Source: Candidatus Nitrospira inopinata (GTDB lineage: Bacteria > Nitrospirota > Nitrospiria > Nitrospirales > Nitrospiraceae). From it: DNA of 32,000 nucleotides. Below, piece after piece: positions 919 to 6,130 of the stretch (positions within the stretch are counted from its first letter, which is position 1; the number at the start of each line of letters is the position of its first letter). Location: the NCBI RefSeq assembly GCF_001458695.1, contig NZ_LN885086.1:1470001-1502000 (forward strand). The letters run 5' to 3'. Under the pieces are notes generated by a model that was not told the DNA's origin, searched no databases, and worked only from the letters and a program-made list of their open reading frames with translations. A program made the position numbers and the translations under genes.

Positions 919-1242
919 TCATCCTCCCGCCATGGCACCGACGATCAGCAACGGCTCCTCCCCTTTGGCCACCGCTTCCGGCAGCGGCGCGTCCAGGGAT
1001 TCATGAGAAAGATCCCGTTCGCAGGCGAAGAAGCGGATGAACGGCCGGCGCTTCAGCGTCACGTGATCGCGGATCGTGCCGCGCAGCATCGGATACCGCC
1101 GCTCCAGCGCATCGAGCACGGCGCGCTGCGTGATCGGGGCCGGCACGTCCAATTGGACTTCGCCGCCCACGCGCGCCAGCGTGCGCAAGTGTTGGGGCAA
1201 CACAACTCGGACCAGTCGGTTCTCCGTCGCGTCATTCGTCAT
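919..1242 (-). CDS. MoaD/ThiS-family ubiquitin-like small protein (C-terminal Gly-Gly)
   Basis: 107-aa ORF ending ...[10 protein letters not shown] immediately before the stop. The N-terminal [13 protein letters not shown]...VQLDVP pattern is typical of MoaD/ThiS beta-grasp sulfur carriers. The SD is weak, so the exact start is uncertain. Confidence 0.7.
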
Positions 1243-1315: not shown

Positions 1316-2500
1316 TTACGGGAGCGTTTGCACTTCCACCGACAGCACTGGCGGCAAATCCCGCGCGATGGGCTCCCAACTGTCGCCGCCATCGGCGGAC
1401 CCATAGACCTGCCCGCCGGTCGTTCCGAAGTAGATGCCGCATGGATCGAGATGATCGACGGCCATCGCGTCCCGCAGCACATTCACATAACAGTGCTGCT
1501 GCGGCAATCCCTTTGTGAGCGGCTCCCACTCGTTGCCCCCTGTCCGGCTTCGATAGACGCGCAGCTTGCCGTCCGGCGGGAAATGTTCCGAATCGCTCTT
1601 GATCGGGACGACGTAGATCGTATTCGGCTCGTGCGCATGGACCTCGATCGGAAAGCCGAAATCGCTCGGCAGGTTGCCGCTGATCTCACGCCACGATCGG
1701 CCCGCGTCGTCGCTCCGCAGCACGTCCCAATGTTTTTGCATGAAGAGCACGTTCGGACGGGACGGATGCATGGCAATCCGGTGCACGCAATGGCCGACAT
1801 CGGCGTCCGGGTCCGGCAGCTCATAATTCGAGCGCAGTCCCTTGTTGATCGGCCGCCAGGTCTTCCCGCCATCGTCCGTGCGGAAAGCCCCGGCCGCGGA
1901 GATGGCGACATAGATGCGTTGCGGGTCGGCTGGATCCAGCATGATCGTATGGAGGCACAGGCCGCCCGCGCCGGGCTGCCAGAGACTGCCCTTCACCTCG
2001 CGCAAGCCGGCCAACTCGCGCCACGTCTTCCCACCGTCGGTGGAGCGGAAGAGGGCGGCATCTTCGACGCCCGCGTATACCGTCTCCGGATCGGTCAACG
2101 AGGGCTCGAGGTGCCACACCCGTTTGAACTCCCATGGCTTCTGTGTGCCGTCGTACCACTGGTGCGTCGTCAACGGTCGTCCGGTTTCGATCGAGGTGTC
2201 ATACGCGAACATGTTGCTGGTCCCCGTCGGCATGCCGTCCGGCCCCATCAGATCCTCTGGCTTCGTTCCCGGCGGAGTCCATGTCTTGCCGCCGTCGTCG
2301 GAGCGCTGAATTACTTGGCCGAACCAACTGCTCGTTTGCGAGGCGTAAATCCGGTTCGGATTCACGGGCGAGGCCTTGAGATGGTACAGCTCCCAGCCGC
2401 CAAAGTGAGGGCCGTTGACGTCCCACCGTTTCCGTTTGCCGTCCGACGTGAGAATGAACGCGCCCTTCTTGGTTCCGACCAATAACCGTATGCCGCTCAT
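1316..2500 (-). CDS. BNR/Asp-box repeat beta-propeller protein (sialidase-like / glycosyl-hydrolase-like fold)
   Basis: 394-aa ORF with five SxDxGxTW-type Asp boxes: [53 protein letters not shown] lies 6 nt upstream of the ATG. No signal peptide is visible. The 385-aa antisense ORF is rejected. Confidence 0.8.
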
Positions 2501-2518: not shown

Positions 2519-3013
2519 CTATCGGCCTTCGTACGCATCTTGGATCGCCTTGAGATCGGGCTTGGTCATTCGCAGAATGGCCTCCATCACTCGCTCCGAT
2601 CTCCTGCCGTCAGAGTCCCGCAACATGTCATCCCACATCGGTGATACGATCTGCCAGGACAGCCCGTAGCGGTCTTTGAGCCATCCGCACTGACCTTGCT
2701 CGCCTCCCTCGGAGAGTTTCTCCCACATCTCGTCAATCTCCTGTTGCGAGTCGCATTTCACCATGAACGAGATCGCCTCGCTGAATTTGAAGAGCGGCCC
2801 GCCATTGAGAGCCAAGAACTGCTGACCTGCGATGACAAACTCCACGGTCATGACCGAGCCTATCGGTCGGCCCGAGACCCGGGCGCCGGCTTCTCCATAA
2901 CGGGTGATCGCTCCCAGCTTCGAATTCTTGAATACTGACACGTAAAATATCGCCGCCTCTTCGGCTTGGTCGTCAAACCAGAGACATGGACTGATCCGTT
3001 GCAAATACGCCAT
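2519..3013 (-). CDS. VOC-superfamily protein of the PhnB-like / '3-demethylubiquinone-9 3-methyltransferase domain' type
   Basis: 164-aa ORF. The N-terminal ISPCLWFDDQAEEAAIFYVSVF, and later ...CGWLKDRYGLSWQI, are characteristic of this family. SD GAAGGGGAG lies upstream. Confidence 0.8.
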   Translation of the reverse strand: MAYLQRISPCLWFDDQAEEAAIFYVSVFKNSKLGAITRYGEAGARVSGRPIGSVMTVEFVIAGQQFLALNGGPLFKFSEAISFMVKCDSQQEIDEMWEKLSEGGEQGQCGWLKDRYGLSWQIVSPMWDDMLRDSDGRRSERVMEAILRMTKPDLKAIQDAYEGR

Positions 3014-3067: not shown

Positions 3068-3433
3068 CTATTCATTTGGCAGCGCCGGCACCGTTCGAAC
3101 CGGGCGGATCTCCACCGTTCCGATCCGCGCGCCTGGAATCCTGCCGGCGACGGCGATCGCGTCATCGAGATCGCGCGCGTCAATCAAAAAGTAGCCCGCC
3201 AATTGCTCACGCGTTTCAATGAACGGCCCGTCGGTAATCGAGCGTGTGCCGTGACGCACGTGGACGCAGGTGGCGGTGGACGTGGGCTGCAGCGGCGAAG
3301 CATGCACGTATTGGCCTGTGGCATGAAGCTCATGGCAGAGCCGGATGGATTCCGCCAGCATGTCGCTCCGCACGGCCTCGCTCATCTTCGCGAACGCCTC
3401 TTCATTGTGATACACCAACAACAAGTACTTCAT
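3068..3433 (-). CDS. YciI-family (DGPF-domain) protein, copy 1
   Basis: 121-aa ORF. It has MKYLLLVYHNEE... and the signature ITDGPFIETREQLAGYFLIDARDLDDAI. SD GGAGAGGAG lies upstream. Confidence 0.85.
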   Translation of the reverse strand: MKYLLLVYHNEEAFAKMSEAVRSDMLAESIRLCHELHATGQYVHASPLQPTSTATCVHVRHGTRSITDGPFIETREQLAGYFLIDARDLDDAIAVAGRIPGARIGTVEIRPVRTVPALPNE

Positions 3434-3463: not shown

Positions 3464-3495
3464 GATAGTCGTGCGGCAAGCCGAAAATCGACAGG
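3464..3495 (-). promoter_or_regulatory. Candidate ECF-type promoter (site A): TGTCGA-N16-CGAC
   Basis: Minus strand 3495..3464 reads CCTGTCGATTTTCGgcttgccgcaCGACTATC and ends 30 nt upstream of the YciI ATG at 3433. It is 26/32 identical to the element at 5852..5883, with the same spacing. Confidence 0.55.
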
Positions 3496-3729
3496 CGTCT
3501 TAGAAGGCGTGAGACGCGCACGACGGATCAAGACCGGCGAGATCCGCAGGCGGACTCTCCATCGTCTTAGAAATGCAGGGATTAGACAAGGGGATGGAAG
3601 CCCGTCGGCAAAGGGCAGACCGACGCGGATGGACGCGCCAACAAGCTGCTCCCTGCGAATCACCGCGGCTTCGAGGCGGCACGTATGGACTTCGGATCAG
3701 GGATTGAGATTGAGCCGGTGCTCAGCCCT

Positions 3730-4980
3730 CTATCCCAGCTCGTGCAATCGCCGCTCCAAAAACCGCCGTTCCGGTTCCAACTTTGTGAGATCGAGGGCTC
3801 GTTGGTAGGACGCCCGCGCATCTTCTTTCCTTCCGAGTCGGCGGAAGAGATCGGCCCGCGCGGAATGGATCAGGTGATAGCCGGTCAGCTCACCGCGCGC
3901 CAAAATCGCTTCGACCAGCTCGAGTCCGGACGCCGGTCCATCGCGCATCGCGACCGCCACCGCGCGATTGAGTTCGACGATCGGCGACGGTTCAACCCGC
4001 AAGAGCAGCTCGTAGAGCGCGACGATCTGAGCCCAATCCGTCCCGGCGGCGGTGGCAGCCTCGGCATGGACCGCTGCGATCGCCGCCTGCAGCGTATAGG
4101 GACCGAACCGCTTCGACGACAGCGCCCGTTCAACCAGCGTGATGCCGTCAGCGATGTCGTCGCGATTCCACCGCGAACGGTCCTGGTGTTCCAAGAGGAT
4201 CAAGTCTCCCGTCTCCGAAGTCCGCGCGGCACGCCGTGACTCATGGAGCAGCATCAGGGCGAGCAGGCCCATGACTTCCGGCTCCGGTAGGAGCTGTAAC
4301 AGCAGCCGTCCCAATCTGATGGCCTCGCCGGAAAGATCGGCCCGAGTCAGCGAGGCTCCCGACGAAGCGGCATAGCCCTCATTGAACACCAGATAGATGA
4401 CGTGCAAGACCGCATCCAACCGCGTCGGCAGTTCAGACGGCGGAGGGACCTTGTAGGGAATGCGCGCATCACGGATCTTCGCTTTGGCCCGCACGATCCG
4501 TTGCGCCAACGTCGAAGGCGACGCCAAGAACGCCCGCGCCACTGCCTCCGTCGTGAGGCCGCAGACTTCGCGAAGCGTCAAGGCGATTTGGGCTTCCGGT
4601 TTGAGCGACGGATGGCAGCAGGTGAAGATCAATCGCAGGCGGTCGTCCTGGATAGGGTCGTCGTCTTCCTCCTCCGACGGATTGTGCGTGGCCGTCTCGA
4701 TCTGCTTGGCCAGCTCGTTCAGCGAGGCATCGTAGCGGGCGCGCCGCCGCATGCCGTCGATCGCCTTGAAGCGCCCGGTGGATACCAGCCAGGCGCGTGG
4801 GTTGGCCGGCACACCGTCCCGAGGCCACTGCTCCATGGCGGCGGCGAAGGCCTCGTGTAGGGCTTCTTCGGCGAGGTCGAAGTCCTTGAGCAGGCGAATC
4901 AGGGTCGCGAGGACGTGCCGCGACTCGGTCCGATAGACCTGGTCCACCGTTGTGCGCGCCTGGTCCACCGCGTCGTTCAT
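3730..4980 (-). CDS. ECF sigma factor with long C-terminal TPR-like extension (ECF42-type)
   Basis: 416-aa ORF. The N-terminal sigma-70 region 2/4 core includes ...[55 protein letters not shown] helical-repeat tail of about 200 aa follows, ending ...[26 protein letters not shown]. The start lies 6 nt after the stop of the upstream YciI gene. Flanking YciI/DGPF genes are the context described for group ECF42. Confidence 0.85.
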
Positions 4981-4986
4981 CGCCCA

Positions 4987-5346
4987 TCAGTCCGCGCAGC
5001 CGAGCTCTTTCATCGGACGCACCTCGACGCTGCCGATGCGCGCGGCGGGAAACCGGGAGGCAATGCGGACGGCGTCGTTCAGGTCCTGCACATCGAGCAT
5101 GAGAAATCCGCCGAGCTGCTCCTTCGTCTCGGCAAAGGGGCCGTCGGTGATCGAGACCTGGCCGTTGCGGACCCGTACGGTTGTGGCGGTCTCCACTGGG
5201 TGAAGAGGAGAGGCGGCAAGAAGCTGGCCGATCTTCTGCAATTGGTCGCAGTAGGCGATCGATTCGTCGGAGATAGCCTTTCGTTCGTTCTTTGGGAGCG
5301 CGTTCAGGGCTTTCTCTTCAACATAGATGAGGCAGAGATATTTCAT
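4987..5346 (-). CDS. YciI-family (DGPF-domain) protein, copy 2
   Basis: The track ORF is 4987..5358. I prefer the ATG at 5346 (MKYLCLIYVEE...), which matches the paralogue's N-terminus and has a GGAG SD 6 nt upstream. Signature: ITDGPFAETKEQLGGFLMLDVQDLNDAV. Confidence 0.85.
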   Translation of the reverse strand: MKYLCLIYVEEKALNALPKNERKAISDESIAYCDQLQKIGQLLAASPLHPVETATTVRVRNGQVSITDGPFAETKEQLGGFLMLDVQDLNDAVRIASRFPAARIGSVEVRPMKELGCAD

Positions 5347-5397
5347 GATGAACTCCAAGTCGATTTAGTGGTTTTGAGGCGGATTGAACATCCGATA

Positions 5398-5811
5398 TTA
5401 CTTGGCGCGCTGGTTCGTTTCCCACAGTGCAAACGAGTTGCCTTCCGTGTCTGAGCAGATCGCAAAGTAGCCCATGCCTGGCACCGCGGTTTTCGATTTA
5501 CAAATCGTTCCCCCGAGTTGCCCCACTTTCGCAATCGCGTCGCTTACCGAGGGCACGCTGACATAGTTCGTGATGGGCTGTTGGGGATGCATGCGCGGCA
5601 TGAGGCCTCCGTCCGGTGAGGCATCCGCGCCGCCCGTATCGATGTGCCAGTAGTCGTATATGGGCGATGGAATCTTGTCGAACGTCCAGCCGAAGAGCGA
5701 GCCGTAGAATTTCTTGGCTCGCTCGATATCATCGGCCGGAATTTCAAACCAGACGATACTGGCTGCTGTCTTGCCGTTCTTGGCTTTCTGCTTCTTTGTC
5801 TCTTGTGCCAT
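5398..5811 (-). CDS. VOC / glyoxalase-bleomycin-resistance-family protein
   Basis: The track ORF is 5398..5847. I prefer the ATG at 5811 (MAQETKKQ...), which has a strong SD GAAGGAGG 5 nt upstream. The candidate promoter at 5852..5883 would also place the transcription start site (TSS) downstream of 5847. Motifs: VWFEIPADDIERAKKFYGSLFGW ... GYFAICSDTEGNSFALW. Confidence 0.8.
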   Translation of the reverse strand: MAQETKKQKAKNGKTAASIVWFEIPADDIERAKKFYGSLFGWTFDKIPSPIYDYWHIDTGGADASPDGGLMPRMHPQQPITNYVSVPSVSDAIAKVGQLGGTICKSKTAVPGMGYFAICSDTEGNSFALWETNQRAK

Positions 5812-5851
5812 TACATCCTCCTTCTCTATGGTGAGTGGGCCGCTCACATCG

Positions 5852-5883
5852 GATAGTCGTTGAGAGAGACGAAAATCGACAGG
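5852..5883 (-). promoter_or_regulatory. Candidate ECF-type promoter (site B): TGTCGA-N16-CGAC
   Basis: Minus strand 5883..5852 reads CCTGTCGATTTTCGtctctctcaaCGACTATC and ends 40 nt upstream of the ATG at 5811, the first gene of the VOC-YciI-sigma unit. It is a near-duplicate of site A. Confidence 0.55.
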
Positions 5884-5947
5884 AGACCCTGACCCCTCCT
5901 TCTTATCAGGCTTTTCCTCGTCGCAGTTTCAAAAGGGAAAGGGTCGG

Positions 5948-6130
5948 TCAGGCCTGGTCATCGCTGGGAGTCGGCCATAACGAAAGTGTGACACCGGCGA
6001 TCAAGTATACGATAGCTGCAATGATGGCGCCCGTGTTCAGCTCATACCAGGCGTTTATCCCCAGAAACAGTTCGTTGAAAAAGAGTGCCAGGATCAACAT
6101 GACGATTCCAACCCAATTGAGTGCACTCAT
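5948..6130 (-). CDS. Small membrane protein (about 60 aa, two predicted TM helices)
   Basis: The track ORF is 5948..6214. The internal ATG at 6130 is preceded by AAAGGAGA 7 nt upstream. Product: MSALNWVGIVMLILALFFNELFLGINAWYELNTGAIIAAIVYLIAGVTLSLWPTPSDDQA, which contains two hydrophobic stretches. Confidence 0.55.
   Translation of the reverse strand: MSALNWVGIVMLILALFFNELFLGINAWYELNTGAIIAAIVYLIAGVTLSLWPTPSDDQA

Follow-up and report, generated by a model that had tools for sequence, protein, structure and literature searches.

A repeated 32-nt element as the probable ECF42-type promoter of two gene units around a sigma factor gene in Candidatus Nitrospira inopinata

In the complete ammonia oxidiser Candidatus Nitrospira inopinata, the gene for an ECF42-like extracytoplasmic function (ECF) sigma factor (3730..4980) lies between two copies of a 32-nucleotide (nt) element, and sequence comparison indicates that both copies are very probably promoters read by this sigma factor, one for its own operon and the other for a cluster of stress genes downstream. 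The stretch analysed, referred to below as the window, comprises 32,000 nt of contig NZ_LN885086.1 (positions 1,470,001 to 1,502,000). All genes concerned lie on the minus strand, in the order site B, a VOC gene, a YciI/DGPF gene (YciI2), the sigma gene, a 234-nt spacer, site A, another YciI/DGPF gene (YciI1), a PhnB-like gene, a BNR gene and an open reading frame (ORF) for 107 amino acids (aa). The evidence consists of the repeat itself and its restriction to two places in the window, a directional link of the motif to this sigma family and to YCII genes across the whole family, and conservation of the sites within Nitrospira. The regulatory module is a known one, found here in a comammox Nitrospira, where it had not previously been described; it is a clean but ordinary example, and no new mechanism is revealed.

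The repeated element and its counterparts in other genomes

Site A (minus strand 3495..3464), CCTGTCGATTTTCGGCTTGCCGCACGACTATC, is built as CCTGTCGATTTTCG-GCTTGCCGCA-CGACTATC, and site B (minus strand 5883..5852), CCTGTCGATTTTCGTCTCTCTCAACGACTATC, as CCTGTCGATTTTCG-TCTCTCTCAA-CGACTATC. The two are identical at 22/22 flanking positions and at 4/10 spacer positions, giving a total of 26/32, and both have 16 nt between TGTCGA and CGAC. In site A, the putative -35 box TGTCGA occupies 3493..3488, the spacer 3487..3472 and the putative -10 box CGACTA 3471..3466; the corresponding parts of site B are found at 5881..5876, 5875..5860 and 5859..5854. Site A is separated by 30 nt from the start codon of YciI1 (ATG at 3433), and 40 nt lie between site B and the start codon of the VOC gene (ATG at 5811). 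The original prediction, which was made from the sequence alone, had given the coordinates and sequences of both sites, their identity, spacing and distances, all of them correctly, and its statement that there is no third copy holds for the 32-kb window, both with the 22-base pattern and with a weight matrix. The pattern CCTGTCGATTTTCG-N10-CGACTATC occurs at only two places when up to three mismatches over its 22 bases are allowed, and at the same tolerance none of 100 dinucleotide shuffles of the window contained any match. Exact matches to TGTCGA-N16-CGWC were found at sites A and B only, and the two occurrences of TGTCGATTT, searched on both strands, are the same two sites. With a weight matrix built from other phyla, site B scored 29.9 bits and site A 31.1 bits, the next best place in the window scoring 13.0.

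Outside the element, the identity between the surroundings of the two sites is 13/60 upstream and 14/60 downstream, as expected of random sequence, against 26/32 inside. This confinement of the likeness argues that the repeat is a discrete element and no by-product of a segmental duplication, an origin that was rejected on these figures. A consensus scan of the gene strand of both intergenic regions detected no sigma-70-type promoter, and an Rfam search of the window gave no match. The terminator search in both units found none that was convincing, the only candidate being a weak terminator-like hairpin that overlaps the -35 box of site B.

A scan with the sigma factor, restricted to one genome per species, provided 80 loci (L007-L086; 890 kb in total) with sigma homologues 64-78% identical, from Nitrospirota, Acidobacteriota, Planctomycetota, Gemmatimonadota, Verrucomicrobiota, Chloroflexota, Cyanobacteria and several proteobacterial classes including Pseudomonas. 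TGTCGA-N16/17-CGAC was found 84 times on the strand of the sigma gene and 10 times on the opposite strand, against a chance level of 3.6 +/- 1.4 matches per strand (Markov dinucleotide-based shuffles). As to position, 31 of the 84 sites follow the sigma stop codon by no more than 150 nt, another 24 are found between 150 nt and 3 kb downstream, six further away and 23 upstream. The first ORF downstream of the motif is YCII in 49/78 cases, the remainder including SnoaL, glyoxalase/VOC, PhnB-like (directly after the motif in 5/78, in other phyla), RibD_C, AHSA1 and BNR/sortilin families; all four target families of the window, namely YCII, glyoxalase/VOC, PhnB-like and BNR, are therefore among those found downstream.

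Positions that were not part of the search pattern are also conserved among the 84 sites. TGTCGA is followed by W in 82/84, T in 68/84 and T in 57/84, C stands at the fifth and fourth base before CGAC in 65/84 and 64/84, and CGAC is followed by T in 66/84 and A in 79/84, which gives the profile TGTCGA-W-T-T ... C-C-R-W-W-CGAC-T-A. About 20 promoter positions are thus conserved from Nitrospirota to Pseudomonas and Acidobacteriota, including TGTCGAWTT, the C-C four to five bases before CGAC and the T-A after it. Both window sites have TTT after the -35 box and TA after CGAC, and the C-C before CGAC is present in site A only. Because the free positions are conserved across loci, most of the additional identity between the two window copies belongs to the promoter of the whole family. 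The spacer measures 17 nt in 65 of the cross-phylum sites and 16 nt in 19.

In the converse direction, from motif to context, metagenome contigs were scanned with TGTCGATTTTCG-N10-CGACTATC, which gave at least 121 exact matches (L095-L214), dominated by a soil, probably acidobacterial, variant; N. inopinata contigs do not occur among the matches listed. Of those listed, 97 have at least 400 nt downstream, and in 71 of these 97 a YciI homologue on the same strand starts within 300 nt, so that the motif is not common without ECF linkage, a possibility that had been raised with the original prediction. A sigma homologue is present on 45 loci among the matches listed, many of the loci being short, and by Pfam 65/101 of the downstream ORFs among them are YCII, the others including MacB/FtsX permeases, PadR and RibD_C. 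Five of the listed motif copies precede MacB/FtsX-type permeases of 826-845 aa and three precede PadR regulators. In addition, 56 of the 121 listed matches share the 10-nt spacer GTCTCCCGAA, which indicates that even the spacer is fixed in that soil lineage; most of them are the exact 32-nt variant GCTGTCGATTTTCGGTCTCCCGAACGACTATC, which is unchanged in dozens of soil contigs.

Within the genus, ten further Nitrospira loci were compared (L007, L060, L087-L094). The closest two, L087 and L088, whose sigma factors are 89% and 87% identical to that of the window, keep both sites at the same distances and with the same genes, the counterpart of site A lying at 6387 in L087 and at 6497 in L088. A site before the sigma operon is present in 8/10 related Nitrospira loci. 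Site B is retained ahead of the VOC gene in L090 and L007, and in L060, L089, L092, L093 and L094 a site stands before YciI-sigma. One to three more strong sites follow the sigma gene in L091, L093 and L094, before YciI or PhnB-like genes. In L089 the place directly after sigma shows no more than a weak match, and one strong site is found further downstream. Nitrospira moscoviensis (L091) has additional sites in front of PhnB-like and BNR genes; the site upstream of its sigma gene stands before a YciI gene, but a diverging gene cuts this YciI gene off from sigma, and the site was not counted as lying before the sigma operon. Spacers of 16 nt and 17 nt occur together within single Nitrospira loci. 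When the region upstream of the VOC gene is aligned with more distant Nitrospira, the shared sequence is reduced to CTGTCGATTT, ACGACTATC, the Shine-Dalgarno sequence and the ATG.

The sigma factor and the proposed regulatory circuit

The sigma factor (416 aa) is 100% identical to a Ca. Nitrospira inopinata protein and, judged by its domains, has the ECF42 architecture of sigma2, sigma4 and a 245-aa extension with TPR, in agreement with its earlier description as ECF42-like. Pfam places Sigma70_r2 (PF04542) at residues 16-82 and Sigma70_r4_2 (PF08281) at residues 118-169, which together account for the ECF core only, sigma-70 regions 1 and 3 being absent. The C-terminal extension covers residues 172-416 and contains DUF6596 at 187-286 (E=1e-37) and a TPR region at about 357-399, in which TPR_2 (371-399, E=3.9e-5) lies below the Pfam curated cutoff; TPR_2 and TPR_12 are precomputed matches in many homologues of the sigma factor. 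The NCBIfam model TIGR02937 (sigma70-ECF) scores above its cutoff and denotes the generic superfamily only. A search of solved structures with the sigma factor gave distant ECF cores only and none for the extension. Homologues 68-71% identical are found in Pseudomonas, from which ECF42 members have been reported (PMC8999054). The identity of 64-78% that is maintained over at least eight phyla (L007-L086) is unusually high for an ECF sigma factor, and suggests either strong constraint or horizontal spread of a module of sigma factor, promoter and DGPF gene.

According to the literature, ECF42 sigma factors combine a sigma2-sigma4 core with a TPR-bearing C-terminal extension some 200 residues long (PMC8999054, PMC7826278, PMC6180224); the extension is needed for activity, the group is without anti-sigma factor, and its members are local regulators of syntenic genes (PMC8999054, PMC9023288, PMC7826278, PMC7776599). 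The neighbours of the window's sigma gene are VOC, YCII, PhnB-like and BNR genes; no anti-sigma gene is among them, and a 60-aa membrane ORF lies outside the unit. The linkage to YCII is twofold, with one YciI gene ending 6 nt before the sigma start and the second following sigma, and the same linkage is seen in related loci.

The nearest known counterpart is the ECF42 sigma factor RpoE10 of Sinorhizobium meliloti, for which two promoters with mapped transcription starts are available, CCCTGTCGG-N17-CGTC-CTTGGAAT-g before SMc01149/SMc01148 and TGTCGG-N17-CGTC before SMb20475. The two operons, which RpoE10 induces, code for glyoxalase-like and hypothetical proteins, both mapped starts are the ninth base after CGTC, and a near-identical motif precedes the YCII gene upstream of rpoE10. 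The window system resembles RpoE10 in its sigma2-sigma4 core with an extension that exceeds 200 aa and has TPR at its end (PMC8999054, PMC7826278), in the lack of an anti-sigma gene nearby, in a YCII/DGPF gene directly upstream in the sigma operon, in targets of the YCII and glyoxalase-fold families, and in a TGTCG-type -35 box with a CG(A/T)C-type -10 box. It differs in its spacer, which at 16 nt is one shorter than the 17 nt of S. meliloti and of most homologous loci, and in its boxes, which are TGTCGA/CGAC instead of TGTCGG/CGTC. Furthermore, a VOC gene heads the sigma operon of the window, the second unit also contains PhnB-like, BNR/sortilin-like and MoaD-like genes, and autoregulation is predicted in Nitrospira but was not seen for RpoE10.

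Based on these comparisons, a possible regulatory circuit can be proposed. The element matches the ECF42 promoter pattern, TGTCG(A/G), 16-17 nt and CG(A/T)C, co-oriented upstream of YCII/glyoxalase-type genes, and the earlier reading of both copies as ECF42-type promoters gains support both from the sigma-to-motif and from the motif-to-context comparison. Region 4 of the sigma factor would read the -35 box TGTCGA(TTT), and region 2 would read the -10 box CGAC(TA), 16 nt further on. Transcription may then start about 9 nt after CGAC, at about G5847 for site B and G3459 for site A, positions that are predicted because both RpoE10 starts are the ninth base after CGTC. The resulting leaders would be 26 nt (site A) and 36 nt (site B) long, with good Shine-Dalgarno sequences. 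Site B would drive VOC-YciI2-sigma and thereby place the sigma gene under positive feedback, and site A would drive YciI1-PhnB-like-BNR and perhaps the MoaD-like gene. Since no anti-sigma gene is present, the activity of the sigma factor is presumably gated through its TPR-containing C-terminal extension, as has been proposed for ECF42. We infer binding by the sigma factor, the start sites, co-transcription and autoregulation from these comparisons.

Several points weigh against this circuit. Only 23/84 cross-phylum sites, about a quarter, lie upstream of the sigma gene. Overexpression of RpoE10 did not raise the upstream YCII gene, and autoregulation is not general in ECF42. Together these two points make positive feedback on the sigma gene the weakest link of the explanation, but 8/10 Nitrospira loci do have a site before the sigma operon. 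The spacing is 16 nt here against 17 nt in 65/84 sites and in S. meliloti, with Nitrospira loci mixing both, and the element contains a partial inverted repeat, GTCG...CGAC, that a dimeric DNA-binding protein could conceivably recognise.

If the circuit is correct, a concrete regulon can be assigned to an alternative sigma factor in a complete ammonia oxidiser, with two promoters and predicted starts and a size of seven to eight genes (VOC, two YciI/DGPF, PhnB-like, BNR propeller, MoaD-like and sigma). The ECF42 module together with its promoter is unusually conserved across phyla. Three features modestly extend the textbook picture: the number of promoter positions conserved across phyla, the occurrence of both 16-nt and 17-nt spacers, and a Nitrospira regulon that takes in BNR/MoaD-like genes. 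A more speculative and rather doubtful proposal is that the ECF42 promoter greatly exceeds a normal ECF promoter in length and rigidity. If so, spacer or extended -10 DNA could be contacted by the DUF6596/TPR extension or by a partner, for example the DGPF protein; alternatively, the sigma factor, promoter and DGPF gene could move as one horizontally transferred module, which in Nitrospira would wire a positive-feedback loop to a BNR/MoaD-like cluster.

Alternative explanations of the repeat

The partial inverted repeat leads to the idea that the element is no sigma promoter but an operator for a dimeric transcription factor, with the inverted half-sites GTCG(A)/(T)CGAC centred about 21 bp apart. 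TGTCG and CGAC(T) do form an inverted repeat of 4-5 bp, about 10 of the 84 cross-phylum sites match the opposite strand as well, and PadR genes follow the motif in 3 of the metagenome matches listed. The motif is, however, directional (84 versus 10) and always co-oriented with the following gene, and its conservation is asymmetric, with WTT after the left box but CC-R-W-W before and TA after the right box. Its 16/17-nt spacing varies even within one locus; such variation is common in -35/-10 pairs but seldom seen in dimer operators. The sigma factor is moreover the only consistently linked regulator, and no other promoter was detectable in these intergenic regions, so an operator of this kind is considered very improbable.

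About equally improbable is a reading in which the two sites are true ECF-type promoters but serve another of the genome's sigma factors, such as one of the ECF41 type (TGTCACA-N16-CGTC), the neighbouring sigma gene being only a target. The ECF41 and ECF42 motifs are related, as illustrated by the S. meliloti RpoE9 promoter CCATGTCACA...CGTC, and the neighbouring sigma factor is the only one that was examined. Against this, the motif travels with this sigma family across phyla, 31/84 sites being located directly behind its stop codon, the -35 box is TGTCGAT and not TGTCACA, and Todor et al. describe the members of ECF42 as acting locally on syntenic genes. The ECF41 group, which includes SigJ of Mycobacterium tuberculosis, RpoE9 of S. 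meliloti and members in Rhodobacter sphaeroides and Bacillus licheniformis, likewise has a fused C-terminal regulatory extension, and resembles the window system in its lack of an anti-sigma gene, its small local regulon and its related promoter. In contrast to the DUF6596 and TPR of the window's sigma factor, the ECF41 extension is SnoaL-like (NTF2 fold), and the neighbouring genes of ECF41 encode carboxymuconolactone decarboxylases or oxidoreductases, not YCII proteins. The -35 box differs as well (TGTCACA versus TGTCGAT here). Given the SnoaL-type extension and the different neighbours, ECF41 does not fit the window's sigma factor itself.

The least probable explanation, which is at odds with the comparative data and is given hardly any weight, is that the repeat is a relic of the YciI duplication or a small mobile or REP-like repeat, without a regulatory role. 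Two YciI paralogues, 50% identical, are indeed present in the locus, but site B precedes the VOC gene and no YciI, the likeness is limited to the 32 nt with the flanks at background level, 32 kb contain only two copies, and the same element stands before unrelated gene families in many phyla. Reading by the ECF42-like sigma factor encoded between the two sites thus remains the preferred explanation.

Genes of the two units and observations on the surrounding sequence

The first gene after site B (5398..5811, minus strand) encodes a 137-aa protein of the VOC/glyoxalase-bleomycin-resistance fold (Pfam Ble-like_N, Glyoxalase). As read from its sequence, its start is the ATG at 5811, with AGGAGG 8 nt upstream, and the longer form from the GTG at 5847 is not real. 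In the upstream alignment, this GTG is absent in L007, and a 29-nt insertion behind that place in L007 would also break the frame; the non-conservation and the insertion together speak against the long ORF, and gene callers use the 137-aa form in six contigs. The start codon of the VOC gene is fixed by this analysis, and the argument of the original prediction against the 5847 start stands. By analogy with S. meliloti, the predicted transcription start of site B coincides with the G of GTG 5847.

The VOC gene is followed by YciI2 (4987..5346, minus strand; 119 aa; Pfam YCII 3.4e-23), which has a TDGPF motif, and by the sigma gene, which starts 6 nt past the YciI2 stop codon. The first gene after site A is YciI1 (3068..3433, minus strand; 121 aa; Pfam YCII 1.9e-17), also with a TDGPF motif. 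The PhnB-like gene (2519..3013, minus strand) encodes a 164-aa VOC-fold protein of the 3-dmu-9_3-mt family (Pfam 6.6e-47) and is probably co-transcribed from site A. The gene for a BNR/sortilin-like beta-propeller protein of 394 aa (1316..2500, minus strand) begins 18 nt past the PhnB-like gene and probably belongs to the same transcription unit. The last gene of the site A unit is possibly the 107-aa ORF (919..1242, minus strand), which has a Gly-Gly end and no Pfam match and is called MoaD/ThiS-like by position, the genes at the equivalent place in L089, L093 and L094 being ThiS (PF02597). A BNR gene followed by a gene for a small Gly-Gly-ending protein (ThiS PF02597 in relatives) forms a conserved tail of the Nitrospira ECF42 cluster, and a BNR gene with a motif copy of its own is found in L043 (Thermomicrobiales) and in N. 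moscoviensis (L091:9770). A literature search for Nitrospira together with YciI or sigma factor found nothing relevant.

Directly upstream of site B lies the 60-aa ORF (5948-6130, minus strand), which has two predicted hydrophobic helices and is conserved among the genes called in L006, L087 and L088. No Pfam family matches it, and no likeness to known anti-sigma domains was detected. In L001-L005, whose sigma factors are identical to that of the window, and in L087 and L088, about 1.8 kb separate this membrane ORF from site B. The segment (L001:7290-9095) carries a ROK-like 288-aa gene and a 117-aa ORF, and is absent from the window and from L006. The deletion junction (window about 5884-5895, minus strand) reads ...AGGAGGGGT|CAGGGT|CTCCTGTCGA, with GGGT microhomology, and lies 2-8 nt upstream of the 32-nt element, so that the deletion ends just short of the putative promoter.

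The 234 nt that separate the sigma stop codon from site A (3496-3729, minus strand) are 91% identical among N. inopinata, L087 and L088, and the corresponding intergenic region in other Nitrospira measures only about 60 nt. The 234-nt stretch has no Rfam match and no convincing ORF, and its fold is no better than that of shuffled sequence (z = -0.49). The stretch could be the remnant of a lost gene, since N. moscoviensis has a glyoxalase gene on the opposite strand at that place.

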